Shown here piece after piece: positions 1 to 24,000 of a DNA stretch of 24,000 nucleotides. The position numbers and the translations under genes are program-made. The stretch covers positions 1,126 through 25,125 of the forward strand of contig CALJNR010000005.1 in the NCBI GenBank assembly GCA_937981575.1, given 5' to 3'. Source of the DNA: an uncultured Clostridia bacterium (lineage in GTDB: Bacteria; Bacillota; Clostridia; Lachnospirales; Cellulosilyticaceae). The notes under the pieces are model-generated. The model saw nothing but the letters and a program-made list of their open reading frames with translations. It did not search any database and had not been told where the DNA came from. The number at the start of each line of letters is the position of its first letter. Position 1 is the first letter of the stretch.

Positions 1-255
1 GAGTATAATATTCTTTGTACTGAAAAAGCTGTATATGTTAGGCCAGGTTTTCAAAAAGCAATTTATAAGTTTGATATGGGCAGGCATGTGACTATTCCAA
101 GAAATATTACAGGCAAGAAGATTAGCTTTAATGGGTCGATGGCCCCTTCAAAAGGAGGAACGATCGAACTTGTTAATGCATCCCTTCGTAAGCGGGCACG
201 GATTACAGTAAGAATAGCAACAGGCAAAACAACTATTTATTATGAAAAGTATTGA
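1..255 (+). CDS. 3' end of a CDS running in from the left edge; hypothetical protein, possibly pseudopilin-like
   Basis: Frame 1 is open from base 1 to TGA at 253-255 (...GTIELVNASLRKRARITVRIATGKTTIYYEKY*). Same strand as the downstream genes. The product guess rests only on a weak resemblance to the C-terminal beta-strands of pseudopilins. Confidence 0.4.
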   Translation, partial: EYNILCTEKAVYVRPGFQKAIYKFDMGRHVTIPRNITGKKISFNGSMAPSKGGTIELVNASLRKRARITVRIATGKTTIYYEKY

Positions 256-4918: not shown

Positions 4919-5863
4919 ATGAAATGTGAAGGGATAATCAGCATGATGCCAAGTGGAATTAAGGGCATGCTGCTGCATTTGGATAATGAACAGTATGATA
5001 CGCTTCAGGAAATAAGACTTCGAATAGGAAAGCCGCTGATTTTAGTTTTGAAGGGAGAAGAGTATGGCCTTGGGCGTGAAGGAATCTGCAGTGTTCAAAA
5101 CAGTTATTTGGTTAATCCAGAGGATATGGATGCCATTATCAAGTATATGAGTGGGTTTTCACTTTATGCACTGGAAGATGAACTCAGACAGGGATACATA
5201 ACGATAGAAGGCGGGCACCGGGTAGGGATTGCTGGTAAAGCTGTTGTTGAAAAGCAAGGAATCAAAACAATAAAGCATATTAGTGCACTCAATATAAGAA
5301 TTGCTCACGAGGTTATTAACTGCAGTAAAGGGATTATGCCATACATTTTAAAACGGGACAAGGTCTATCATACGCTGATCGTTTCCCCGCCTAAATGTGG
5401 AAAAACAACGCTGCTTAGGGATATCATCAGGAATCTAAGCAATGGGTATAGCGGATTTGGCCCTTATACTGTAGGGGTAGTTGATGAAAGATCAGAAATA
5501 GCTGGCTGCTACCAAGGGATACCTCAAAATGATGTGGGAATGAGGACGGATGTTTTAGATGGATGCCCTAAGGTTGAAGGCATGCGGATGCTGCTTAGGG
5601 CTATGTCGCCAGATGTTATTGCTGTAGATGAAATAGGAAAGAAGGAAGATATTTTAGCTTTGCAGGAAGTGTTAAGTGCAGGCGTTGCCGTTATTAGCAC
5701 AGTCCATGGCAAAGATATTGAGGATTGCAGAAAAAAACCTATTCTTAATGAACTCATAGAAAATGCTTTTTTTGAAAGAATCATTGTGCTTTCAAACCGC
5801 CTTGGACCCTGTACGATAGAAGAGATTTTAGATGCCCGTAATTGTCTAAATAGATTAAGGTAA
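4919..5863 (+). CDS. spoIIIAA: Stage III sporulation protein AA (ATPase)
   Basis: Walker A SPPKCGKTTLLRD and Walker B-like VIAVDEIG. First gene of an eight-gene cluster with the canonical spoIIIA order. RBS AAAGGAGG upstream. Confidence 0.93.
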   Translation: MKCEGIISMMPSGIKGMLLHLDNEQYDTLQEIRLRIGKPLILVLKGEEYGLGREGICSVQNSYLVNPEDMDAIIKYMSGFSLYALEDELRQGYITIEGGHRVGIAGKAVVEKQGIKTIKHISALNIRIAHEVINCSKGIMPYILKRDKVYHTLIVSPPKCGKTTLLRDIIRNLSNGYSGFGPYTVGVVDERSEIAGCYQGIPQNDVGMRTDVLDGCPKVEGMRMLLRAMSPDVIAVDEIGKKEDILALQEVLSAGVAVISTVHGKDIEDCRKKPILNELIENAFFERIIVLSNRLGPCTIEEILDARNCLNRLR

Positions 5864-5873
5864 GGTGAAAAGG

Positions 5874-6389
5874 ATGAAATTATTAGGGATAACAATCGTA
5901 TTTATTAGCTGCAGTATGTGTGGGTTTATTATTGATTGGAATGAAAATAAGCGGCTAAAGGAACTTGAAAAATTTATTTACGCCTTTGAACTGTTAAAGG
6001 CAGAAATAGATTATAGACTGACACCACTTCAGGAAGCTGCACTTTATGTAAGTCATCTGACAACGGATGGGATAAAAAAGGTGTTTGCAGCTTTTGCAAG
6101 TGCCTTAGAGAGCAGGGAATATAGTGACCTTAATTTGATGTGGGAACAGGCGCTTTGCACCCATCATGGGGAGTTTCATTTAAGGCCAGACGACGTCACG
6201 ATGCTCAGTGAATTCAGTAATGCCTGTGGTTATTTGGATAAAAACATGCAGAAAAAAAATATAGACATGCTTATTTATAAGTTAAAAGAAGAGCTTACAG
6301 CTTCCAGAGAAAAATATCAAAAGCATAGTAAACTCAACAAATATTTAGGCGTACTGGCTGGAGCATGCGTGAGTATATTTTTAATTTAG
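5874..6389 (+). CDS. spoIIIAB: Stage III sporulation protein AB
   Basis: About 171 aa with an N-terminal TM helix and a C-terminal TM helix, in the position expected for SpoIIIAB. ATG 5874 lies 6 nt after AAGGTG; the ORF track's GTG at 5865 is an alternative start. Confidence 0.88.
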   Translation: MKLLGITIVFISCSMCGFIIDWNENKRLKELEKFIYAFELLKAEIDYRLTPLQEAALYVSHLTTDGIKKVFAAFASALESREYSDLNLMWEQALCTHHGEFHLRPDDVTMLSEFSNACGYLDKNMQKKNIDMLIYKLKEELTASREKYQKHSKLNKYLGVLAGACVSIFLI

Positions 6390-6397
6390 GAGGATAA

Positions 6398-6598
6398 ATG
6401 ATGTTTGATATAGCTATTATCTTTAAGCTCGCTGGACTTGGTCTTGGTATTACTATTTTAAATACAGTGCTTAAAAAAGTTGGTGCAGATGAATGGATTT
6501 TTCCTATTACAATTGTAGGGGTAATTATGGCACTCCTTACAGTAGTAACCTATATTTCGAAACTTTTCGAGGCAGTTCAGACAATGTTTACATTTTAG
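6398..6598 (+). CDS. spoIIIAC: Stage III sporulation protein AC
   Basis: 66-aa two-TM protein (MMFDIAIIFKLAGLGLGITILNTVLKK...) in the canonical position. RBS AGGAGG upstream. Confidence 0.9.
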   Translation: MMFDIAIIFKLAGLGLGITILNTVLKKVGADEWIFPITIVGVIMALLTVVTYISKLFEAVQTMFTF

Positions 6599-6609
6599 GA
6601 GGGCACGAT

Positions 6610-7002
6610 ATGGAGATGCTAAGGCTGGTGGGATTTGGCATTATTGCGGCCACCTTGATTATTACGCTAGGTAAATTCAGCGATCAGCATGCTGTCTTTG
6701 GGCTCATTATTCGCGTTGTAACGGTTATTATATTTATGATTTTTATTTTGCAGCATCTTAGCAGTGTCTTTGAAGTCATCAAAGAACTTTCACATAAAGT
6801 GCAGATGGATAGCACCTATTTAGATATTATTTTAAAAATCATAGGCATTGCATATATTGCCGAGTTTGGTTATCAGCTGTGTAAAGATGCGGGGGAAGAA
6901 GCCATCGGAACCAAAATTCAATTTGCAGGGAAGGTTATGATTTTTGTTATTTCATCTCCTGTTATCCTTGCGCTTGTAGCACTTATCACAGAGTTATTAT
7001 AA
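6610..7002 (+). CDS. spoIIIAD: Stage III sporulation protein AD
   Basis: ATG 6610 is in frame with ORF 6493..7002 and preceded by AGGAGG at 6597-6602. The product MEMLRLVGFGIIAA...IGIAYIAEFGYQLCKDAGEE matches the SpoIIIAD signature. The upstream 39 codons overlap spoIIIAC and look non-genic. Confidence 0.9.
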   Translation: MEMLRLVGFGIIAATLIITLGKFSDQHAVFGLIIRVVTVIIFMIFILQHLSSVFEVIKELSHKVQMDSTYLDIILKIIGIAYIAEFGYQLCKDAGEEAIGTKIQFAGKVMIFVISSPVILALVALITELL

Positions 7003-7016
7003 GATGAGGTGTAAAA

Positions 7017-8201
7017 ATGAGACAAAAGAAAAGTTTGTATTTACTGCTGGTGATAGTTTTTTGCTTTTTTAGTTTTATTACTTTTGTTTATGGACAAGAA
7101 CTCGAGAGCTATGAAATGAACAAGCAGGAAATAATAGATTATCAAATGAATTTTTTTAATTGGGATGAGATTAATAAAGTAGAAAGCAGACTCAAAGCAT
7201 CTATGCCAAATATAAGCACATTTAATTTAAAAGATGAAGTGCTGAGCATGATTAAAGGAGAAAAAAGATTTTCACTGCAAGGGCTATTGGATGCGGCAAG
7301 CAGGCTTTTGTTTGAAGAAATAGAAGTTTTTATAAAACTTGGGGTCCGGTTTATCCTGATCGTTCTGCTGTGTAATCTCTTAGAGACACTTAGCGCATCG
7401 TTTAAAAGCAAAAATACAACACAGATTTCTTTTTTTGTTTGCTATATTGTTGTACTTTATAGTGTTATTCAATCCTTCTTTGTAATGGTTGAGCTGGCAC
7501 GAAGCGCAATAGACCGGATGGGAGAAATTATGTTTGCATGTGTACCAAGCTTACTCGCTTTTCTCACAACGTCCGGATATGTGACGACAGCTGCTTCAGC
7601 GGCCCCTGTAGTTATAGGCGGACTGAATCTTAGTACATATGTTATTAAGCATTTAATACTTCCATGCATCATTTCAGTAGTTGTACTAGATGTTATCAGT
7701 ACAATGAGCAGTGAGTTTAAAATTGACAAGCTTATCGCACTGTTTTATAAGGGCATGAAATGGATACTGAAAGGAATTTTAATAGCAAGTGTCGGCATAC
7801 TTGGGTTTTACAAAATGACACTTCCTTATGTTGATACAACTGTCAGAAAGGCTGCAACGAATATTTCAGCAGCTTTTATTCCAGTTATAGGGGATGCAGT
7901 CGGCAGTGCAGTAGACTTTGTGGTTAATTATTCCTTTCTTGTAAAAAATGCTTTTTCTGCGGGGGTCATTTTATGGATTGTAATGATCGTCAGTCTGCCG
8001 CTTATTAAAATACTTGCTTATGTTATTGTCTACCATGCTGCAGCTGCTGCTATTGAGCCTATTGGTGACAAAAAAATGGCAAGTATTGCAACAAGGCTCG
8101 CGAAGGGCTGTGAATTTATCATGAGCTGCGTCGGCATTGTAGCTGTACTGTGTATCGTTGTGCTGCTTATTTGTATCAGCGTGGGCGGCAACATGATCTA
8201 G
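7017..8201 (+). CDS. spoIIIAE: Stage III sporulation protein AE
   Basis: 394-aa protein with a signal/TM N-terminus and multiple C-terminal TM helices, fifth in the operon. Confidence 0.9.
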   Translation: MRQKKSLYLLLVIVFCFFSFITFVYGQELESYEMNKQEIIDYQMNFFNWDEINKVESRLKASMPNISTFNLKDEVLSMIKGEKRFSLQGLLDAASRLLFEEIEVFIKLGVRFILIVLLCNLLETLSASFKSKNTTQISFFVCYIVVLYSVIQSFFVMVELARSAIDRMGEIMFACVPSLLAFLTTSGYVTTAASAAPVVIGGLNLSTYVIKHLILPCIISVVVLDVISTMSSEFKIDKLIALFYKGMKWILKGILIASVGILGFYKMTLPYVDTTVRKAATNISAAFIPVIGDAVGSAVDFVVNYSFLVKNAFSAGVILWIVMIVSLPLIKILAYVIVYHAAAAAIEPIGDKKMASIATRLAKGCEFIMSCVGIVAVLCIVVLLICISVGGNMI

Positions 8202-8211
8202 GAGGATAAAA

Positions 8212-8793
8212 ATGAAAGAATACATTCAGATGTTCATATGGATTATGCTGTTTGTTATTGTTATTGAAATGATTTTTCCGGATTCCGATTATAAGAAGTA
8301 CCTAAAGCTTGTACTCGGATGCATTATTATGTACACCATTATTAAGCCTGCTGCACAGTTTATTCCTCTTGAAGGACAAAGTTATAATCAATATGTTGCA
8401 AGTTACCAAAGTAAGCTTTTAGAGGGGATGAACGGCATGGAAGAAGAAGGCTATAATAAAGAGGTTAGAAAACAAGCATCTCTTATTAAAGATACACTGT
8501 TAGTCAGCATAAAGACCGTCATTGAGAGAGAAATGAATGTCAGTGTGCTGGATGTTCAGGTGGACTATAAAAATGGAGAAGATGAAGCGGTTATTGATAC
8601 TGTTTACTTAATAGTCGGAAAAACTGAGGAAAGGGAGAATGGGAAAATCTTTATTCCAAAGATAAAACTCGGAGAAAAAAGCAGCAGTATAAACGGGGAT
8701 GAAGAAAAATTAAAAATAAAAATAAAAACTTGTCTTAAAAACTTCTATAATGTGCCGAGCAGTAATATATATATTACAGTACAGAAGAATTAA
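8212..8793 (+). CDS. spoIIIAF: Stage III sporulation protein AF
   Basis: 193 aa with two N-terminal TM helices (FIWIMLFVIVIEMIFP..., LVLGCIIMYTIIKP) and a soluble C-terminal domain, in the canonical position. Confidence 0.88.
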   Translation: MKEYIQMFIWIMLFVIVIEMIFPDSDYKKYLKLVLGCIIMYTIIKPAAQFIPLEGQSYNQYVASYQSKLLEGMNGMEEEGYNKEVRKQASLIKDTLLVSIKTVIEREMNVSVLDVQVDYKNGEDEAVIDTVYLIVGKTEERENGKIFIPKIKLGEKSSSINGDEEKLKIKIKTCLKNFYNVPSSNIYITVQKN

Positions 8794-8807
8794 AGGGAGG
8801 TGGGGGC

Positions 8808-9368
8808 ATGCTCGACAAGCTTTTCAAAGGGGCAAAAGATAGCAAGAAGCAAAAATATTTATACTTAGCAATAGGTATAGCGCTGCTCGGAATCGTCATA
8901 ACGTTTATACCTGCTAAGCAGCCAGATAACGGTCATAAGACTCAAAATGCTCCAATAGCACATGTTTCAAAGGACAGTACAAGTTATGAAGAAACACTGG
9001 AAAAAAGACTAGCAGATATTTTAGAAAAAATGGAGGGGGTTGGTCAGGTTGAAATTATGCTTACAACCTTTTCTAACGAAGAAAAGGTATTAGCAGAAGA
9101 GAAAACACAAAATTATCAGCATCAGGAAGAAAAAGATGAATCAGGAGGTATAAGGATATCAGAAAGAAATGATATGCAGAACCGCATTGTGCTGCAAAGC
9201 GGCAATACACCTTTTATCATCAAAGAGAATAAGCCTCAAATAGAAGGGGTGCTTGTATTAGCTGAAGGAGCTGACAGTGGCGTGGTGAAAGCTCAGATTA
9301 TTGAGTCAGTATCTAATGTCCTTCAAGTTCCAGTACATAAAATATCAGTATTTAAAAAACAAAATTAA
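8808..9368 (+). CDS. spoIIIAG: Stage III sporulation protein AG
   Basis: 186 aa with a single N-terminal TM helix and a C-terminal ring-building-type domain (VGQVEIMLT...IEGVLVLAEGA), in the canonical position. Confidence 0.88.
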   Translation: MLDKLFKGAKDSKKQKYLYLAIGIALLGIVITFIPAKQPDNGHKTQNAPIAHVSKDSTSYEETLEKRLADILEKMEGVGQVEIMLTTFSNEEKVLAEEKTQNYQHQEEKDESGGIRISERNDMQNRIVLQSGNTPFIIKENKPQIEGVLVLAEGADSGVVKAQIIESVSNVLQVPVHKISVFKKQN

Positions 9369-9380
9369 GGGGGATGTAGA

Positions 9381-10136
9381 ATGTTTACATTTAAAAGAAA
9401 TCAAATTATTATTACAGTACTTGTTTTTATGATTGCTATTGCAGCCTATCTTAACACAAAAGATAACGAAGCTGGGGTATCACCCAATTTAGTACAAAGT
9501 GGTCAAATAACACAGGAAGAGATTGCAGAAGAAAAAGACTTTTTTGAAGGCTATGATGAAATTGAAACACTTCCTCCAGACATGGATGAAGAAATGTTTG
9601 AAGCGATGAGCACTGAAGCTGAAAACAAAACTGATGCAGCAGCTGCAGCAAACAGCTTTAAACCTGAAAAGATTGAAGCCGTTATTACTAAAAAAGATGC
9701 AGTGATAGCAAATAGTAAAGAACTTCAAAAAAGTGATACAGCATCTGCTCAAAAGAATATAGATGTAAGCTATTTTGTAGAAGAAAAGATGATGAGAGAA
9801 CAAAGCAGAGCCCTTCAGGTTGAAGAACTTACTCAATATGTAGCCAATGAAAACCTTGATAAAGAAGCAAAGGCTAAAGCGGCAGAAAATCTGCTCGCTA
9901 TTCAGGAACGTATCGAAAAAGAAAGCAGTGCAGAAGCACTTTTAAGAGCTAAAGGCTTTAGAGAAGTCTATGTAAGAATAGATGATAATAGTGTAGATGT
10001 AGTCATTAATAAAGAGAATTTAACAGAATCTGATATTGCTCAGATTGAAGAGATTGTAAATAGAAAAACAGGTTACAGCGTAGGCAAGATTAAAATTACG
10101 CCGCTAAAAGGCATATCAAAAGAAAGCAATAATTAA
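9381..10136 (+). CDS. spoIIIAH: Stage III sporulation protein AH
   Basis: 251 aa with an N-terminal TM helix, an acidic low-complexity linker, and a C-terminal domain (...GFREVYVRIDDNSVDVVINKENL...). Last gene of the operon, followed by a terminator. Confidence 0.88.
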   Translation: MFTFKRNQIIITVLVFMIAIAAYLNTKDNEAGVSPNLVQSGQITQEEIAEEKDFFEGYDEIETLPPDMDEEMFEAMSTEAENKTDAAAAANSFKPEKIEAVITKKDAVIANSKELQKSDTASAQKNIDVSYFVEEKMMREQSRALQVEELTQYVANENLDKEAKAKAAENLLAIQERIEKESSAEALLRAKGFREVYVRIDDNSVDVVINKENLTESDIAQIEEIVNRKTGYSVGKIKITPLKGISKESNN

Positions 10137-12364: not shown

Positions 12365-12563
12365 AGGAGCAATTGAGGAGCTCGAAAAGATTGTAACGGA
12401 TTTAGAAGAGGGGGATATTTCGCTTGAAGACAGTATCAAAAGCTATAAGCAAGGTATCGATCTTGCAGCTTACTGCCTGTCCATTTTGAAAAAAGCAGAA
12501 CAAGAGATTTATGTTTATGAAGAAGAATCCTACAAAAAAGCAGAAGGAGACGACTGGGAGTGA
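12336..12563 (+). CDS. xseB: Exodeoxyribonuclease VII small subunit
   Basis: ATG 12336 follows AAGGAGAG. The product MAKKVQKSFEGAIEELEKIVTDLEEGDISLEDSI... is a typical XseB. It overlaps the xseA 3' end by 29 nt; the 14 codons upstream in the ORF track are probably not translated. Confidence 0.9.
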   Translation: MAKKVQKSFEGAIEELEKIVTDLEEGDISLEDSIKSYKQGIDLAAYCLSILKKAEQEIYVYEEESYKKAEGDDWE

Positions 12564-13435
12564 AAGCAGATATAAAAAAATACCAGGACTTAATCAACGC
12601 TCGCCTGGAAACTGCACTGCCCATACAGCCAGGTTATTTTAAGACATTGTATGAGGCTATGAATTACAGCCTGCGGGCAGGAGGGAAACGAATTAGGCCT
12701 ATTCTTATGCAGCTTGCTTATGAAGCAGTTGGAGGAAGTGAGGATATTTCAGCTTACTTATGTGCTATTGAGATGGTTCATACGTATTCCCTGATTCACG
12801 ATGATCTTCCATCTATGGACAATGACGACCTTCGAAGAGGCAAACCTACAAATCATATGGTTTTTGGTGAAGCAGCAGCCATTTTGGCGGGGGACGGTCT
12901 TTTAAACCAGGCTTTTGAAAGTATGCTTGAGGATGCTATGAAACATGGGGGAATCGAACGGGTTCATGCTGCATACATATTAGCTAGAGCAGGAGGCATA
13001 AAAGGCATGATAGCTGGGCAAATTCTAGATATTGAAAGTGAAAATAAAACAATCAGCCTCCAAGCACTGGAAACGATCCATCTGCATAAAACCGGTGCGC
13101 TTATTAAGGCTGCACTTAAAATGGGAAGTGTATTAGGACGAGGAACGCCAAATGAGGTGCATGCTTTAGAAACATACGGAGAACATATCGGCAAAGTATT
13201 TCAGATTATAGATGATGTTTTGGATGAAGTCTCTACAGATCAGGAACTTGGCAAGCGCATAAAGAGTGATCAGAAAAACAAAAAAAACACCTATCTTAGT
13301 TTTTATACGGTAGACGAGTGTTATCAAATAGCTAAAGAACTTACGGATAAAGCGCTCAGTGCATTAGTCATGTTAAAGGGTGATACCGCCCTGCTTAGGG
13401 GCATTGCCGTTGATCTTATAAATCGCAGAAGCTAA
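12560..13435 (+). CDS. ispA: (2E,6E)-farnesyl/geranyl diphosphate synthase (polyprenyl synthetase family)
   Basis: First Asp-rich motif LIHDDLPSMDNDDLRRG and second motif QIIDDVLD. The GTG start overlaps the xseB stop (GTGA). Confidence 0.93.
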   Translation: MKADIKKYQDLINARLETALPIQPGYFKTLYEAMNYSLRAGGKRIRPILMQLAYEAVGGSEDISAYLCAIEMVHTYSLIHDDLPSMDNDDLRRGKPTNHMVFGEAAAILAGDGLLNQAFESMLEDAMKHGGIERVHAAYILARAGGIKGMIAGQILDIESENKTISLQALETIHLHKTGALIKAALKMGSVLGRGTPNEVHALETYGEHIGKVFQIIDDVLDEVSTDQELGKRIKSDQKNKKNTYLSFYTVDECYQIAKELTDKALSALVMLKGDTALLRGIAVDLINRRS

Positions 13436-13446
13436 AGGGGGATACC

Positions 13447-13896
13447 ATGAATTACATTAAGCAGCTTTCAAACAATCATATTTTATGGGTAGCTATTTTC
13501 AGCTGGTTTATAGCACAATTTTTAAAAGTGATTGTTACGCTCTTTTATGAGCATAAACTCGACTTAAAAAAATTTTTTGCCTCAGGAGGCATGCCAAGTT
13601 CGCATAGTTCGTTTGTTACGGCCCTGGCTATTGGGATAGGACAGGTATATGGATATGATAATGTTTTGTTTGCCATAGCTGCAGTTTTTAGTTTTATTGT
13701 TATGTACGATGCGGCCAACGTAAGACTCCATGCGGGCAAACAAGCAGCTAGAATCAACCAGATTATTGCTGTATTAGAAGATCCTACGCTTAATCCGGAA
13801 GAAAGACTAAAAGAAATATTAGGACATACACCCTTTCAGGTTATGGCTGGAGGGATACTTGGCATACTCATAGCGTTCATTTTTTTTGCAGGGTAA
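13447..13896 (+). CDS. Divergent PAP2-family membrane protein (YuiD-like, acid phosphatase/vanadium haloperoxidase-related)
   Basis: 149-aa polytopic protein with GGMPSSHSS and YDAANVRLHAG motifs, which I recognise as the divergent PAP2 family. RBS AGGGGGA upstream. Confidence 0.8.
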   Translation: MNYIKQLSNNHILWVAIFSWFIAQFLKVIVTLFYEHKLDLKKFFASGGMPSSHSSFVTALAIGIGQVYGYDNVLFAIAAVFSFIVMYDAANVRLHAGKQAARINQIIAVLEDPTLNPEERLKEILGHTPFQVMAGGILGILIAFIFFAG

Positions 13897-13901
13897 TACA
13901 G

Positions 13902-13930
13902 TTGAAAAAGCAAGACTTAACTGCTATAAT
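13902..13930 (+). promoter_or_regulatory. Near-consensus sigma-A promoter with extended -10, driving the large ncRNA and the membrane-protein gene
   Basis: TTGAAA (13902-13907), 17-nt spacer ending in TGc (13922-13924), TATAAT (13925-13930). The predicted TSS is near 13937, a few nt before the RNA's terminal helix. Confidence 0.6.
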
Positions 13931-13936
13931 GTGTTA

Positions 13937-14572
13937 AAAGCGACTTATGACGTGCTTTTCAAAAAGTAAGATGCAGTATTCTAGTCAAGATATTATGTTT
14001 TGAAGACGGGCCTAAAAATCCGTTTTAGGGCATATCGATGAAGTTCCTGGTGTTGGCTTGTAACGCCCCGTTATGGGCTGATACTGGGGGTTAAGGTTTA
14101 AGGGCGATCCATAAGGGCATATGGGCGTTGACCCTTTTACCGTGGAGACCTATGATTGTGCTTATTCCTATGGGAATAATGTATGACTTAGGATTAAACC
14201 TACCATGCGGTATAGGCTGTGGGTAGTGTAGCCTGCCTTGAGTGAAGGCGGGGGGACATCAATTTACTGATAAGTTTTTCGGCCAAAAAACCTGTCGGAT
14301 TGTTGATAGAAACCTGATTCGCAAAAGAGGATAGGAGCATAATATATTGCCCGAGGAAAACTCCTAGACTGTTCAGTTTGAGATAGAATATGGATTACAG
14401 TGTGGCTAAAGGCGATCTGGCGTAGATGATGGTAACACATCTAAAACAGAGTTAAAGGGAAACCGCTCTTTTGGCGACAAAAGGGTCTATGTTTGGGAAA
14501 ACCTGCTAGACTATATACCACAAAATTTACGTATTCTATTGTCTTAATTTTTGAAAAGCGGGTGATAAGTCG
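13937..14572 (+). ncRNA. ole: Large structured noncoding RNA, candidate OLE (ornate, large, extremophilic) RNA
   Basis: The 703-bp gap has no ORF of 60 aa or more on either strand. It has its own promoter and many local hairpins. A 25-nt terminal helix pairs 13941-13965 with 14548-14572. The length (~630 nt) and the ispA-RNA-membrane protein-dxs context match the published OLE locus as I recall it. Not verified against the OLE consensus. Confidence 0.7.
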
Positions 14573-14599
14573 ATCACAAAGGAGTAATGATAAGTCATT

Positions 14600-15163
14600 A
14601 TGCATAAAAGAGTGAAGTTTAAAAAAGTTAAGATAAGAAAACAGTCTATAAGAACTTTAAGTATCATTATTTTGACCACTTTTTTTATTGCAATGATGTT
14701 CAGTTACATTTTCGAAGTACTTTTGGGAGATGTTCCGCTGCTTGCAGCGTTTTTTATGCTGATTGTTATTATACTTATAGGCATATTGTTTGACGGTATT
14801 GGTAATGCAGTTGTTTCAGCAGATGAAACGACCTTTCATTCTATGGCTGCTCAAAAAGTAAAAGGAGCTAAGGAAAGCATTATGCTTATTAGAAATGCAC
14901 CTATGGTTGCGAATTTATTTAATGATGTAATAGGGGATATAGCAGGGATTATATCAGGAAGTACAGCTGCTGCTATTATATTAGCACTTAATCCTAAAAC
15001 AGTACTTTTTTCGATTGTAATGAGCGGGTTTGTTGCAGCACTTACAGTCGGAGGAAAAGCTATAGGCAAAGGATTTGCAATTGAGAGGTCACGCTACATT
15101 GTTTATTATGTAGGAGTTTTTATCTATTACATGAAACGATTATTACGGAAAAATAAAAACTAA
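14600..15163 (+). CDS. oapA: Small polytopic membrane protein, candidate OLE-associated protein A
   Basis: 187 aa with a basic N-terminus (MHKRVKFKKVKIRKQ) and at least four hydrophobic helices. The conserved-looking DxxxD (NDVIGD, D109/D113, nt 14924-14938) lies at the start of a glycine-rich helix. The gene is immediately downstream of the structured RNA and upstream of dxs, as described for oapA. Confidence 0.7.
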   Translation: MHKRVKFKKVKIRKQSIRTLSIIILTTFFIAMMFSYIFEVLLGDVPLLAAFFMLIVIILIGILFDGIGNAVVSADETTFHSMAAQKVKGAKESIMLIRNAPMVANLFNDVIGDIAGIISGSTAAAIILALNPKTVLFSIVMSGFVAALTVGGKAIGKGFAIERSRYIVYYVGVFIYYMKRLLRKNKN

Positions 15164-15164
15164 G

Positions 15165-15194
15165 ATGACAATCCCTTATGATTGTCATTTTTTA
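15165..15194 (+). terminator. Rho-independent terminator after the membrane-protein gene
   Basis: 9-bp stem ATGACAATC (15165-15173) / GATTGTCAT (15180-15188), loop CCTTAT, then TTTTTT at 15189-15194. Confidence 0.85.
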
Positions 15195-15226: not shown

Positions 15227-17101
15227 ATGTTAGATATGTTAAAGGCCATTCATGCTCCGGAAGATGTTAAAAAACTTAAACCTTATGATTTGAAAAAACT
15301 CTCTAAGGCTGTAAGAAGGTTTTTAGTTCAGTCTTTGTCTAAAACAGGAGGGCATTTAGCTTCAAATTTGGGGGTAGTAGAACTTACCATTGCACTCCAC
15401 TATGTTTTTGATCTGCCTCAGGATAAAATCATATGGGATGTAGGACATCAAGCCTATGTTCATAAGCTCTTAACAGGAAGACGAAGGGACTTTAAGACAC
15501 TAAGGAAGCTAGATGGATTAAGCGGCTTTCCGAAGAGGAAAGAAAGTGTTTATGATGCATTTGAAACAGGACATAGCTCAACCTCGATTTCAGCTGCGTT
15601 AGGCATGGCAGCAGCAAGAGACTTGAAGGGGGAAGACCACAAGGTTATTGCAGTAATAGGAGACGGGGCATTAACTGGGGGGATGGCTTTTGAAGCATTA
15701 AACCATGCTGGCCGGGGGCATACCAATATTATTGTCGTTCTTAATGACAATGAAATGTCTATTTCTAAAAATGTCGGCGGATTATGCAAATACCTCAACA
15801 AGCTGAGATCCAGCAAAGATTATCTTAGAGTTAAAGAGGACATTGAAGGGGTGCTTGAAAAAGTTCCAGTTGTTGGAAAAGGGATGGTAAGCATTATTAA
15901 GCGCACAAAAGAAGGTTTTAAAAGCCTGCTTATACAAAATACATTATTTGAACAGTTAGGGTTTACTTATTTAGGCCCGGTAGACGGGCACGCTTATAAT
16001 GAACTCATCGATATTTTTGAAAATGCCAAAGAGATGAAAGGGCCTGTACTCATTCATGTTAAAACCAAAAAGGGGAAAGGGTATCTCCTTGCTGAGCAAA
16101 ATCCCAGTCTTTTTCATGGGATTGCCCCATTTGATATTGCAACAGGGGCTGTTTCAAAGCAACATGAAAGAGAAACATTTTCATCAGCTTTTGGTCAGGC
16201 AATGTGCGAATTAGCTTTAACTGAAAAAAATATAGTAGCAATATCAGCGGCTATGCCGGAGGGCACAGGGCTGCTGGAATTTGCCCGCGCTTTTCCTAAG
16301 CAGTTTTTTGATGTTGGCATTGCTGAGCAGCATGCTGTAACATTTGCTGCAGGCCTTGCATCACAAGGCTATAGGCCAGTTGCAGCCATTTACTCATCTT
16401 TTCTGCAAAGAGCTTATGATCAGATTTTGCATGATGTATGTCTTCAAAATCTTCCTGTTATTTTTGCCATCGACCGAGCTGGGCTAGTGGGGGAAGATGG
16501 AGCTACCCATCAAGGGATTTTTGACATAGCCTATTTGAGCAGTATGCCTAATATACAGATCTTAGCGCCTAAAGTACCGGAAGAAATGCCAATGGCTTTA
16601 AATTATGCAGTTACTCAAAATGGACCGGTAGCTATCCGCTATCCAAGGGGTACACTGCAAATGGACGAAAAATACCATAATAATTACTTAGATCCTCATT
16701 TTAAAACTTTAAAGCAAGGTAAGGATATAGCATTACTTGCAGCAGGGCGAATGGTAGAGGCAGCTTTCAGTGTCAGAGAAAAATTGATTCAGGATAATTT
16801 CAAACCAGCAGTTATTGAAGCGCCACGTGTTTATCCTCTGGATGAAACAGCTTTACAGGATATTGCTGGGCAGTATACCTATATTTTTACATTGGAAGAT
16901 GGCATTGCTGCGGGAGGCTTTGGTGAAAAGATATTTGCGTATCTCACAAATCATCATCATATTCCGCTTGGCCATTCATTCGCCTATCAAAACGGGGTTA
17001 TTGAACATGGGGATATAGAGAGCCTGCAGGAAAGAGAAGGCCTTTCAGCAGATAAAATCTACAGGCGGATTCTTACAATACTTCAGAAAGAGAGCAGTTA
17101 A
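15227..17101 (+). CDS. dxs: 1-deoxy-D-xylulose-5-phosphate synthase
   Basis: ATG 15227 lies 6 nt after GAGGA. The N-terminus MLDMLKAIHAPEDVKKL is typical of Dxs. Also present are GHSSTSISAALGMA and the TPP-binding motif GDGALTGGMAFEALN. The ORF-track start at 15182 sits inside the upstream terminator. Confidence 0.95.
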   Translation: MLDMLKAIHAPEDVKKLKPYDLKKLSKAVRRFLVQSLSKTGGHLASNLGVVELTIALHYVFDLPQDKIIWDVGHQAYVHKLLTGRRRDFKTLRKLDGLSGFPKRKESVYDAFETGHSSTSISAALGMAAARDLKGEDHKVIAVIGDGALTGGMAFEALNHAGRGHTNIIVVLNDNEMSISKNVGGLCKYLNKLRSSKDYLRVKEDIEGVLEKVPVVGKGMVSIIKRTKEGFKSLLIQNTLFEQLGFTYLGPVDGHAYNELIDIFENAKEMKGPVLIHVKTKKGKGYLLAEQNPSLFHGIAPFDIATGAVSKQHERETFSSAFGQAMCELALTEKNIVAISAAMPEGTGLLEFARAFPKQFFDVGIAEQHAVTFAAGLASQGYRPVAAIYSSFLQRAYDQILHDVCLQNLPVIFAIDRAGLVGEDGATHQGIFDIAYLSSMPNIQILAPKVPEEMPMALNYAVTQNGPVAIRYPRGTLQMDEKYHNNYLDPHFKTLKQGKDIALLAAGRMVEAAFSVREKLIQDNFKPAVIEAPRVYPLDETALQDIAGQYTYIFTLEDGIAAGGFGEKIFAYLTNHHHIPLGHSFAYQNGVIEHGDIESLQEREGLSADKIYRRILTILQKESS

Positions 17102-17905
17102 ATGGAAGACAAAGAAAGATTAGATATACTTATTGCAGAAAGAAACCTAGCTGAGTCAAGAGAAAGAGCTAAAGCTTATATTATGGCAGGGGTCGTTTAT
17201 GTTGATGGACAAAAAGAAGATAAACCGGGGCTGAAAGTAAAGCGGAGCAGCGTTATTGAAGTCAAAGAAAAAATGAAATATGTAAGCCGCGGAGGCTACA
17301 AACTTGAAAAAGCATTATCAGCCTTTAAAATAGATCTTAATGAGAAAACATGTATGGATGTAGGCGCATCCACAGGGGGATTTACAGACTGCATGCTGCA
17401 AAACGGGGCCTGCAAAGTTTATGCCATTGATGTAGGGTATGGACAGCTGGCATGGAAACTTAGGCAGGATGAGCGGGTTAGGTGCATGGAAAAAACAAAC
17501 ATCAGGTATGTTACAAAGGAAGTTATTGAAGATGTGGTTGCATTTAGCTCTATTGATGTTTCATTTATCTCCTTAGCGAAGGTTCTTTTTCCTATCTCTC
17601 AGATCCTTCATGAAAATGGAGAAATTATTGCACTTATAAAGCCGCAGTTTGAGGCTGGAAGAGAACAAGTAGAAAAGCATGGAGTTGTCAAAAATCCAAA
17701 AGTTCATAGTCAGGTAATTAATGAGGTATGGACCTATGCCGAAAGTATTGGACTGATTACAGCGGGACTAGATTTTTCACCCATCAAGGGGCCAGAGGGG
17801 AATATTGAATATCTTATTTACCTTAAAAAAAACGCAGATGGTTTAATAGAGCACAAAGAATCTTGCATTGAAGAAATTGTCAGCGGAGCACATCAATCTT
17901 TATAA
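17102..17905 (+). CDS. tlyA: TlyA-family rRNA 2'-O-methyltransferase (S4 domain plus FtsJ-like methyltransferase)
   Basis: N-terminal S4-like RNA-binding region (RLDILIAERNLAESRERAKAYIMAGVVYVDG) and the SAM-binding motif DVGASTGGFTD. Position equivalent to yqxC downstream of dxs. Confidence 0.9.
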   Translation: MEDKERLDILIAERNLAESRERAKAYIMAGVVYVDGQKEDKPGLKVKRSSVIEVKEKMKYVSRGGYKLEKALSAFKIDLNEKTCMDVGASTGGFTDCMLQNGACKVYAIDVGYGQLAWKLRQDERVRCMEKTNIRYVTKEVIEDVVAFSSIDVSFISLAKVLFPISQILHENGEIIALIKPQFEAGREQVEKHGVVKNPKVHSQVINEVWTYAESIGLITAGLDFSPIKGPEGNIEYLIYLKKNADGLIEHKESCIEEIVSGAHQSL

Positions 17906-21047: not shown

Positions 21048-22343
21048 GTGAATGAAATGAGACATAGAAAAAAAAAGCTATGCTTTGTTAGTTTTATATT
21101 TTTAGTAATAGGCATGATAGTAAGCAGTCCCATCATTATTTCTCACTTTTATCTTCCAAGAGAAGTTAAACTGATAGCAGGAAAAGAACATATTTTTAAC
21201 TTTGACATCCCTTTGAAAGCAAGTATTATGAAAAGCAATGCAATTACCGTTAAAGGGGAACATAACGACAGTATCGATACAGATTCAATCAGCCTTAACA
21301 AACCTCTAAAGGTTAGTATGGACGAAGCCGGCAAAACAGATGTTACACTATCATTGTTAGGCTTTATTCCGCTGAGAACAGTATCGATTGAAGCTGTTCC
21401 AGATCGAGAAGTGATTCCGTGCGGAAAAATTGTAGGGATTAAGGTAGATACAAAAGGGATCTTGGTGCTGGGAGTCGGACAGTTTGAAATAGAGGGGAAA
21501 ACAGCTTCGCCGTGTAAGGGGATTATTGAACCGGGAGATATGATTTTAAAATGTAATGATATTGAATTAAAAGCAAAAGAAGACTTAAGAGACATTATTG
21601 AAACCTCAAAAAAAGAGACTGTAAAGCTTACTATCTTAAGAAATAAAGAAATTAAAGATGTTATTGTTAAACCTTCCTATTCTATCTTTGACAATGAATA
21701 TAAAATTGGATTGTGGATTAGAGACAGCACCCAGGGTATTGGTACCCTAACTTACATTGACCCTAAAACTGGGAACTTTGGAGCGCTTGGACATGGCATT
21801 ACAGATACAGATACAAAAAAACTCATGCCAATAAGAGAAGGCAATATTATTTATACGACCATCACGCATATTAAAAAAGGGAAAAAAGGGATTCCAGGAG
21901 AAATAAGTGGAATTATTGAATATGATGATAAAAATATTATTGGTGAAGTGAGTAATAATACGCCTATAGGTATTTATGGCAAACTTGATAAAAGTGTTAT
22001 AGAAACCCTCGATCATCCAAGTATTCCAATAGCTTTTCAGGATGAAGTGCATGAAGGAAAAGCCTCTGTGCTCGTAGCTTTAACAGGCGAAAGGCCAGAA
22101 GAGTATGAAGTCTTTATACAAAAAGTATCCAAATATAGCAATGAGCCAGCAAAAGGGATGATTATTAAAATAGTAGATGAAAGATTACTTGGCTTAACCA
22201 ATGGCATTATTCAAGGAATGAGCGGAAGTCCTATCCTTCAGGATGGTAAACTTATTGGGGCTGTAACCCATGTATTTATTCAAGATCCAACACGCGGATA
22301 CGGGATATTTATAGAAAATATGATTAATAATGAAAAAAGATAG
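21048..22343 (+). CDS. spoIVB: SpoIVB peptidase (S55 family sporulation signalling protease)
   Basis: N-terminal TM helix, a PDZ region (GIIEPGDMILKCNDIEL), and an S55 domain with GALGHGI and the catalytic-serine motif QGMSGSPI. Located immediately upstream of spo0A, as in Bacillus and Clostridium. The start is GTG 21048 or ATG 21057. Confidence 0.92.
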   Translation: MNEMRHRKKKLCFVSFIFLVIGMIVSSPIIISHFYLPREVKLIAGKEHIFNFDIPLKASIMKSNAITVKGEHNDSIDTDSISLNKPLKVSMDEAGKTDVTLSLLGFIPLRTVSIEAVPDREVIPCGKIVGIKVDTKGILVLGVGQFEIEGKTASPCKGIIEPGDMILKCNDIELKAKEDLRDIIETSKKETVKLTILRNKEIKDVIVKPSYSIFDNEYKIGLWIRDSTQGIGTLTYIDPKTGNFGALGHGITDTDTKKLMPIREGNIIYTTITHIKKGKKGIPGEISGIIEYDDKNIIGEVSNNTPIGIYGKLDKSVIETLDHPSIPIAFQDEVHEGKASVLVALTGERPEEYEVFIQKVSKYSNEPAKGMIIKIVDERLLGLTNGIIQGMSGSPILQDGKLIGAVTHVFIQDPTRGYGIFIENMINNEKR

Positions 22344-22384
22344 TGGGAATTGTAAAAATAAAATAAAAATTACAGAAAATGGTA

Positions 22385-22413
22385 TTGATATTTTCCAAAT
22401 TATTATATATAAT
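22385..22413 (+). promoter_or_regulatory. Candidate sigma-A-type promoter upstream of spo0A
   Basis: TTGATA (22385-22390), 17-nt spacer, TATAAT (22408-22413). The region is extremely AT-rich, so a chance match is plausible. Confidence 0.35.
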
Positions 22414-22462
22414 TAATTTATGATTTTTCAAAATAACATATAATTTTTAGGGGGGATATTTT

Positions 22463-23290
22463 TTGTTTGAGCAAAAAATGAAAATATTGATAGCAGATGA
22501 TAATAAAGACTTTTCTGATATTTTAATGGAATTTATAAATAGACAGGAAGATATGCAGGTAGTGGATGTAGCAGCCAACGGCGAAGAAGCTTGTACACTT
22601 ATTGAAGAAACTGAGCCGGAGATTGTAATATTAGATGTTATCATGCCTTATTTAGATGGCATTGGTGTTTTAGAGCGTGTACTTACTATGAACCTTACGA
22701 AAAGGCCATTGTTTATCATGCTGTCAGCAGTTGGACAAGATAAGATTACAGAGAGGGCTTTGGCTCTAGGTGCTGAGTATTACATTGTTAAGCCATTTGA
22801 TATGGATACGCTGATTAATAGAATAAGACAGCTTAAGTCTATGTCAAAGGTAACAAAAGCAAGCACTTCATCACCAAGTGCCAATTTAACAAGTACAAAG
22901 TCACTGCTGCCTAAGTCAAAAGGTATGCCTTCTCAACATAGCCTGGAAACAGAAGTAACGAGTGTAATCCATGAAATAGGTGTTCCAGCTCATATTAAAG
23001 GGTATCAATATCTAAGAGACGCAATTATAATGGTCATTAATGATATGGATGTACTTAATTCGATTACCAAACAACTTTATCCTAATATTGCAAAGCAGTA
23101 TAACACAACGCCAAGCCGTGTAGAACGGGCAATTCGTCATGCCATTGAAGTGGCATGGAGCCGTGGTAAAATGGATACAATCGATAAATTATTTGGTTAT
23201 ACCGTAAATAACGGAAAAGGTAAACCAACAAATTCTGAGTTTATTGCACTTATTGCAGACAGACTTAGACTTGAAATGCAGGTAGGATAA
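22463..23290 (+). CDS. spo0A: Sporulation master regulator Spo0A
   Basis: Receiver domain ([11 protein letters not shown]..., ILDVIMP) and the Spo0A-specific C-terminal DNA-binding domain ([30 protein letters not shown]). TTG 22463 lies 7 nt after GGGGGG; ATG 22478 is an alternative start. Confidence 0.95.
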
Positions 23291-23512: not shown

Positions 23513-24000
23513 TTATTCACCTTCAGCAGCTATTGAACGCTCATCAAGCGGTGTATAATCGCGGCGTTTTGCAACACTCTTATAAGCTGGACGTATAATT
23601 TTACCCTTGTTTACCAACTCTTCCATACGGTGAGCACTCCAGCCTGTAATACGTGCAATTGCAAATAATGGGGTATACAGTTCCATTGGCAGATTAAGCA
23701 TGCTGTAAACAAAGCCAGAATAGAAATCTACGTTTGCGCTTACTCCTTTGTACATTTGTCTGACATCTCCAATAACTTTAGGAGCAAGTTCTTCGACTTT
23801 AGCATAAAAGTTGTATTCAGCTTCAAGTCCTTTTTCTTTTGCCAGCTCCTCAGCATATTCTTTTAGAATAATAGCACGAGGATCAGAGACTGAATAGACA
23901 GCGTGACCAATACCATAAATCAAGCCAGATTTATCAAAGGCTTCTTTGCTAAGGAGTTTCATTAAATATTTTTCGATTTCTTCTTCATCAGACCAGTCTT
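23513..24000 (-). CDS. Citrate synthase family protein; C-terminal part, CDS continues past the right edge
   Basis: The minus-strand frame stays open upstream of the M at 23962 to the window edge (...DWSDEEEIEKYLMKLL...). Citrate synthase motifs GIGHAVY..SDPRA and NVDFYSG are present, and an ARITGWSAH segment. Confidence 0.85.
   Translation of the reverse strand, partial: DWSDEEEIEKYLMKLLSKEAFDKSGLIYGIGHAVYSVSDPRAIILKEYAEELAKEKGLEAEYNFYAKVEELAPKVIGDVRQMYKGVSANVDFYSGFVYSMLNLPMELYTPLFAIARITGWSAHRMEELVNKGKIIRPAYKSVAKRRDYTPLDERSIAAEGE

Follow-up and report, generated by a model that had tools for sequence, protein, structure and literature searches.

Gene layout of the ole-oapA region

The window, by which we mean the whole stretch of 24,000 nucleotides analyzed here, carries in order aroK, aroQ, an M24 peptidase gene, efp, a sulfatase-family gene, spoIIIAA-AH, asp23, nusB, xseA, xseB, ispA, a DUF212 gene and the gene for OLE (ornate, large, extremophilic) RNA, followed by oapA, dxs, tlyA/yqxC, nadK, argR, recN, spoIVB and spo0A. 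The features that concern us are collected in Table 1. The OLE RNA was identified in an Rfam scan with a score of 466.5 bits (E = 3.5e-134), the gathering score of the model being 50 bits, and the match is untruncated, covering model positions 1-616 of 616. Only 38 nt separate its end from the ATG of oapA on the same strand, so that the placement of this reading frame immediately downstream of the RNA, as claimed in the original prediction, is correct. The ORF listing of the window also recovered the exact translation of 187 amino acids.

Table 1. Positions of genes, signals and conserved codons at the ole-oapA locus of the window
Feature	Position	Strand	Evidence
ispA (polyprenyl synthetase), conserved upstream neighbour	12560..13435	+	PF00348, E 1.5e-56
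DUF212 / divergent PAP2 membrane protein, 149 aa, between ispA and OLE	13447..13896	+	PF02681, E 5.6e-51
Promoter-like site: TTGAAA, 17-nt spacer, TATAAT with TG before the -10 (extended -10)	13902..13930	+	11/12 consensus matches
OLE RNA gene, full length	13952..14561	+	Rfam RF01071
Shine-Dalgarno of oapA, AGGAG	14580..14584	+	Read from sequence; 15 nt 5' of ATG
oapA, 187-aa OLE-associated protein A orthologue	14600..15163 (including stop codon)	+	ORF list, BLASTP, OLE upstream, four-TM model
D65 codon, near-invariant Asp, second TM helix	14792..14794	+	D in 151/152; helix 47-73, 8 residues from cytoplasmic end
DxxxD motif, D109-V-I-G-D113, third TM helix	14924..14938	+	Script; conservation; alignment with D100/D104
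K153-A-I-G-K157, invariant lysine pair, fourth TM helix	15056..15070	+	152/152 and 151/152; helix 135-162
Terminator-like hairpin, 12-bp stem, 6-nt loop, then U tract	15162..15193	+	-12.5 kcal/mol, z -4.0 vs shuffles
dxs (DXP synthase), conserved downstream neighbour (probable start)	15227..17101	+	PF13292, E 4.2e-126
tlyA/yqxC-type S4 + FtsJ rRNA methyltransferase, conserved neighbour	17102..17905	+	PF01728, E 5.1e-44; PF01479

Database searches with the oapA product yielded 3316 homologues at E<=1e-3 (90% clusters) and, at the level of 50% identity, 1024 representative clusters, of which 707 have E<=1e-10. The named relatives belong to Cellulosilyticum and Sporanaerobium, and one exact copy of the protein exists in NCBI/ENA data. 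Close relatives share the N-terminal motif MxK[KR][VI]KFKK. With thousands of homologues and a conserved N-terminus, a chance reading frame is ruled out. Since the motif is kept from residue 1, the ATG at 14600 is a sound start, and the two other starts considered, a GTG at codon 5 and an out-of-frame ATG at 14587, were rejected on the same grounds. The spacing between Shine-Dalgarno sequence and ATG is rather long compared with the 8-10 nt found in the two closest loci (L001 and L002).

The out-of-frame ATG at 14587 opens a mini-ORF of six codons (MISHYA), which ends with a TAA at 14605-14607 and hence overlaps the oapA start within the region 14580-14607. It is probably meaningless, and it could have an effect on the initiation of oapA translation.

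The spoIIIAA-AH operon, spoIVB and spo0A also lie near ole-oapA (4919-10136 and 21048-23290). Sporulation genes have been found to correlate with ole in phylogenetic profiling (PMC11332333).

Transcription signals

The promoter-like site listed in Table 1 occupies part of the 55 nt that separate the DUF212 gene from OLE, about 20 nt upstream of the OLE match. In the surrounding region such sites are no more frequent than in shuffled sequences. An equivalent element is also present upstream of OLE in L001, a locus 74% identical to ours. At the other end, the terminator-like hairpin directly follows the oapA stop codon. L001 and L002 have a hairpin with a T-run in the corresponding position, with a different loop and altered stem bases. 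As consensus or folding matches only, these elements suggest that ole-oapA may have its own promoter in the window, and that the pair may form a self-contained two-gene unit in this clade. The whole cluster of Halalkalibacterium halodurans is reported to be transcribed as one polycistronic transcript (PMC12265935).

Homology to OapA and conservation of charged residues

BLASTP analysis revealed 41% identity over 176 amino acids (E = 1e-43) between the window protein and P0270, a 200 amino acid protein of H. halodurans. The latter was identified as OapA by being the top match, at 94% identity, to the OapA sequence given in Supplementary Table 4 of Kretsch et al. (PMC12286853); that sequence was machine-read text with a few residues dropped, and it was used for retrieving the intact P0270. 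In the alignment, D109-V-I-G-D113 of the window protein falls over D100-V-I-G-D104, the aspartates of P0270 being located at exactly 100 and 104. These are the residues altered in the PM1 mutant (D100A/D104A) of H. halodurans, the phenotypes of which are worse than those of the deletion (PMC9723947) and which has been termed 'dominant-negative' (PMC7936274). The original prediction called the protein a candidate OapA, with a dominant-negative effect of alanine substitutions in the DxxxD motif and BH2780 as the locus. This interpretation is supported, and OapA is equated with BH2780 in the literature (PMC7936274).

The window protein is thus a sequence orthologue of the experimentally studied OapA of H. 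halodurans in which the invariant residues of the family are kept, and every testable defining feature of OapA is present. We conclude with great confidence that the gene is oapA, from a Bacillota genome of the Cellulosilyticaceae type, and that it forms the usual tandem with ole. Further likenesses to OapA (BH2780, formerly OAP) of Halalkalibacterium (Bacillus) halodurans are the position directly after ole, the comparable size (187 vs 200 amino acids), the four predicted transmembrane helices and the conservation of D65, K153 and K157. The two proteins differ in source lineage, ours being clostridial (Cellulosilyticaceae-like) and the other from the Bacillaceae, and in the N-terminus, which is much more basic here. 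A script counted nine lysines or arginines and no aspartate or glutamate among the first 20 residues, in keeping with the lysine/arginine-rich N-terminus remarked from the sequence, whereas H. halodurans OapA has two lysines or arginines in its first 10. In addition, the loop between the third and fourth helices is shorter in the window protein, with a 10-residue alignment gap at residues 130-131, and position 107 is phenylalanine instead of cysteine.

OapA of Clostridium botulinum (CLB_RS09010) is likewise clostridial and encoded beside ole, and it was used in the 2025 models of a membrane-spanning OLE dimer (PMC12265935). Its N-terminal segment is described there as a signal sequence, a description which fits the basic n-region and hydrophobic helix of the window protein. 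We found no literature dealing with OLE RNA together with Cellulosilyticum.

Conservation was assessed in an alignment of 152 sequences, comprising the window protein, the published OapA sequence and the top 150 phmmer representatives, these being unselected by motif. The script had located a single DxxxD (DVIGD) in the protein, at the residues and nucleotides originally proposed. D109 is present in all 152 representatives and D113 in 151, with one glutamate. The two glycines G112 and G120 (each 152/152) are equally conserved, as are D65 (151/152), K153 (152/152) and K157 (151/152), and a smaller OapA alignment agrees with these figures. Three further basic residues, K86, K91 and R98, are conserved in the majority of sequences (consensus ...AAxKxxGAKxxxxLIRNA...).

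The phenylalanine at position 107 (codon 14918-14920), two residues ahead of the DxxxD motif, is an oddity of the window protein, as 82% of the representatives have cysteine there (NFCNDVIGD vs NLFNDVIGD here).

Co-occurrence with OLE RNA

Relatives of the protein were sought in one genome per species with a pattern derived from the DxxxD block. At least 563 loci were obtained, and the analysis used the 80 of highest similarity, so that distant relatives lie outside the sample. Among these 80 most similar loci, OLE was located directly upstream and on the same strand in 79, so that the co-occurrence test proposed with the original prediction gave a positive result. In 76 of the 80, OLE-like sequence was detected by nhmmer with the window OLE as query, and in the loci submitted to Rfam full-length OLE was confirmed. 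Of the four nhmmer negatives, L015, L029 and L036 possess, according to Rfam, the 3' end of OLE cut by the contig end. The sole exception among the 80 is L069, whose contig offers 430-570 nt of upstream sequence; a permissive Rfam scan detected no OLE there. The frequency agrees with published statements that ole and oapA are almost always found in tandem and that oapA is restricted to organisms containing ole (PMC9723947; PMC11332333).

At the start of the L069 contig (1-1086) there is an ORF (23..205) similar to the C-terminal end of an IS3-type transposase. An insertion may have removed or interrupted OLE, or else a repeat may have broken the assembly.

The neighbourhood was examined by tblastn. 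In this set of 80 loci, chosen by similarity from at least 563, homologs were found of xseA (40), xseB (32), ispA (48), DUF212 (18), dxs (69) and tlyA (71), the DUF212 homolog occupying the same place as in the window. The DUF212 product may be connected with the handling of isoprenoid pyrophosphates or with the OLE complex. The usual xseA-xseB-ispA and dxs-tlyA neighbourhood is present in the window.

Predicted structure and relationship to CNNM proteins

An AlphaFold2 model, based upon a 79-sequence alignment, has a mean pLDDT of 92.7 and a pTM of 0.82. It contains helices at residues 15-42, 47-73, 76-84, 90-98, 100-130, 135-162 and 164-184. Lysines and arginines number nine in the N-terminus, none in loop 43-46, four in residues 74-99, one in loop 131-134 and seven in the C-terminus, which gives 20 on the proposed inside against one on the outside. 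On the positive-inside rule, the counts yield four transmembrane helices with both termini in the cytoplasm, and this topology, together with a CNNM/CorB-like core, is predicted with high confidence. Model and charge distribution thus give the four-helix topology with termini inside that has been published for OapA, a protein of about 21 kDa. The two short helices (76-84 and 90-98) and the last helix (164-184) are placed by the prediction on the cytoplasmic face, and K86, K91 and R98, assigned to the short pair, would make up the cytoplasmic positive-charge cluster of OapA. All five hydrophobic stretches noticed originally are present; the fifth (residues 166-177) falls within the last helix, which is modelled as juxtamembrane and does not form a fifth transmembrane segment.

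Foldseek searches of the PDB returned as the top four matches chains of MtCorB (7M1T/7M1U), an archaeal CNNM Mg2+ transporter, with a probability of 1.00, E-values from 3.7e-3 to 8e-2 and TM-scores of 0.46-0.57 over about 140-147 aligned columns. All matches beyond these have E>3, and CorB is hence the only credible neighbour in the PDB. With Pfam, the match to CNNM (PF01595, residues 53-182) reaches 16.9 bits and stays below the cut-off of 28.4. This family was matched at E<=0.1 by 53 of 79 OapA family members (best 1.3e-8), and no other Pfam family recurs. A search of the PDB with the family sequence profile, at E<=1 and at E<=10, matched no structure, CNNM proteins lying beyond its sequence reach and the PDB containing no OapA entry. 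Neither a CBS pair nor a CorC_HlyC domain was found by Pfam in the 187 residues. The original remark that no enzymatic family motif is recognisable holds for NCBIfam, which returned no family, and has to be qualified by the weak CNNM/DUF21 match and the CorB-like fold. Assignment to an unrelated characterised transporter family, which had been named as grounds for giving up OapA, was not obtained by Pfam, NCBIfam, the PDB profile search or Foldseek.

These results reproduce for the window protein the picture drawn by Fernando and Breaker for H. halodurans OapA, including the weak CNNM homology and the structural match to CorB 7M1U (PMC11332333). According to the same authors, OapA has four transmembrane helices against three in CorB, the DxxxD motif sets OapA apart from CNNM domains, which do not contain it, and a conserved CNNM proline is missing in OapA (PMC11332333). 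Our model shares the DUF21 transmembrane fold with the CNNM/DUF21 domain of MpfA, CorB and CorC (Methanoculleus thermophilus CorB, 7M1T/7M1U). Defining features of those proteins are an above-threshold CNNM domain, tandem CBS domains and a C-terminal CorC_HlyC domain, whereas the window protein is without all of these, and it possesses the DxxxD motif and an extra N-terminal transmembrane helix which CNNM domains lack. It is a member of the OapA family on a CNNM-like scaffold and no CorB, since it displays the features of OapA, remains under the Pfam threshold and is devoid of CBS and CorC domains. It is an ordinary orthologue, and the literature already describes the system, its DxxxD motif, the relationship to CNNM and the surrounding genes.

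The basic N-terminus may contact RNA. A signal anchor with a positive-inside n-region would account for it just as well, and a 2025 review describes the N-terminal segment of OapA as a signal sequence (PMC12265935).

Proposed function

Few large RNA machines of bacteria are as puzzling as the OLE ribonucleoprotein, in which OapA is the one protein that cannot be dispensed with. In H. halodurans, at least two OapA molecules bind each OLE RNA, close to P2 and P4a (PMC12265935, PMC9723947, PMC7936274), and OapA is needed for localisation of the RNA to the membrane (PMC12265935). The complex contributes to tolerance of cold, short-chain alcohols including ethanol, raised Mg2+ and poor carbon sources (PMC12265935, PMC9723947, PMC7936274). 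By analogy, the window protein would be a CNNM-like membrane dimer, its dimerisation being transferred from H. halodurans; it would bind OLE RNA cooperatively near P2/P4a, with at least two proteins per RNA, and would bring the RNA to the membrane and anchor it there to form the core of the complex.

The predicted transmembrane helices contain a set of nearly invariant charges. D65 lies 8 residues from the cytoplasmic end of its helix, D109 9, D113 13, K153 9 and K157 5, these depths being read from the helix boundaries and not from coordinates. All five thus lie on three transmembrane helices, 5-13 residues in from the cytoplasmic side, and should come together in the inner half of the bilayer as a single buried cluster of charge. 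Because the fold is CorB-like and oapA mutants are sensitive to Mg2+, such a cluster would most likely bind or conduct divalent cations. OLE RNA, for its part, would then take over the regulation that MpfA owes to its CBS pair and CorC domain, which OapA lacks. Tentatively, and as something we would put at rather less than even, OapA may be a divalent-cation conduit gated by RNA, with the charged cluster as the ion site and OLE RNA in place of the MpfA-type CBS/CorC domains. If true, OapA with OLE would be an RNA-regulated, possibly RNA-spanning, membrane transport device. The idea of an RNA-gated OapA conduit has been proposed before (PMC11332333, PMC12265935), and the window contributes just one more instance. 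Should ole-oapA prove to be a self-contained unit here, it would offer a convenient minimal system in which to test it.

A serious rival to the divalent-cation site, which we nonetheless judge to be on the unlikely side, is that OapA does no more than hold OLE RNA at the membrane as a passive anchor or scaffold, handles no ions and keeps a CNNM-like fold as an evolutionary leftover. RNA binding and the membrane localisation of the RNA are the only activities of OapA shown biochemically (PMC7936274, PMC12265935); transport is not known to have been measured for any OapA, and the OapA literature calls the protein a 'putative' transporter. On the other hand, five charges buried in transmembrane helices and essentially invariant in 152 divergent representatives would be costly for a mere anchor. 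Moreover, mutants altered at two of these residues fare worse than deletion mutants (PMC9723947, PMC7936274), Mg2+ sensitivity follows when the complex is disrupted, and MpfA anticorrelates with OLE (PMC11332333).

It is far less probable, and in our opinion very unlikely, that the protein is a stand-alone, truncated Mg2+/Co2+ transporter of the CorB/MpfA type, next to which OLE lies incidentally. Database records do name homologs 'Mg2+ and Co2+ transporter CorB', 'CNNM transmembrane domain-containing protein' or 'CBS domain containing-hemolysin-like protein', and the weak CNNM match and the sole structural neighbour point the same way. Against this stand the sub-threshold score, the short length with neither CBS pair nor CorC_HlyC domain, and the extra N-terminal helix and DxxxD motif absent from CNNM domains (PMC11332333). 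The adjacency is hardly incidental either, because OLE is kept upstream in all but one of the 80 loci of highest similarity among at least 563.

Barely credible is the last alternative, a membrane protein of isoprenoid metabolism with OLE as the regulatory RNA of that operon: ispA, dxs and the DUF212/PAP2 gene do flank the pair at the frequencies given above, but the ispA-dxs neighbourhood is presumably also found in Bacillota without ole and oapA, e.g. B. subtilis, no similarity to isoprenoid enzyme families was detected with Pfam or NCBIfam, and in L038, L046, L047, L057, L058, L072 and L073 dxs is absent, tlyA directly follows oapA and OLE is retained.

The invariant residues also point to K153/K157 and D65 as targets for mutagenesis besides the D100/D104 pair already published.

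Annotation

The window adds another ordinary ole-oapA pair, from a Cellulosilyticaceae-like anaerobe, and its practical value lies in annotation. Neither Pfam nor NCBIfam holds a model for the OapA family, and the public names of its members (P0040, P0060, P0280, P0282, P0313, P0334 and others) are inconsistent, ranging from hypothetical and membrane spanning protein to the CorB, CNNM and hemolysin-like designations quoted above. The name 'CBS domain containing-hemolysin-like' is wrong, since these members of about 200 amino acids contain no CBS domain. The invariant set D65, D109, G112, D113, G120, K153 and K157 could seed a proper family model.

Three neighbouring reading frames require comment. 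The mechanical start of dxs is a TTG at 15182, which falls inside the terminator-like hairpin, so that hairpin and mechanical start overlap. The PF13292 match begins at residue 20 of the ORF opened by this TTG, and GAAAGAGG is located upstream of the ATG at 15227, which is the probable true start. Within the sporulation operon, the ORF at 8808-9368 (186 aa) has no Pfam match and occupies the place expected of spoIIIAG. Finally, a 149-aa ORF on the minus strand (23513-23962) corresponds to no more than the C-terminal end of citrate synthase (PF00285, profile positions 241-357 of 357), and the rest of that gene, upstream, presumably runs past the end of the window.
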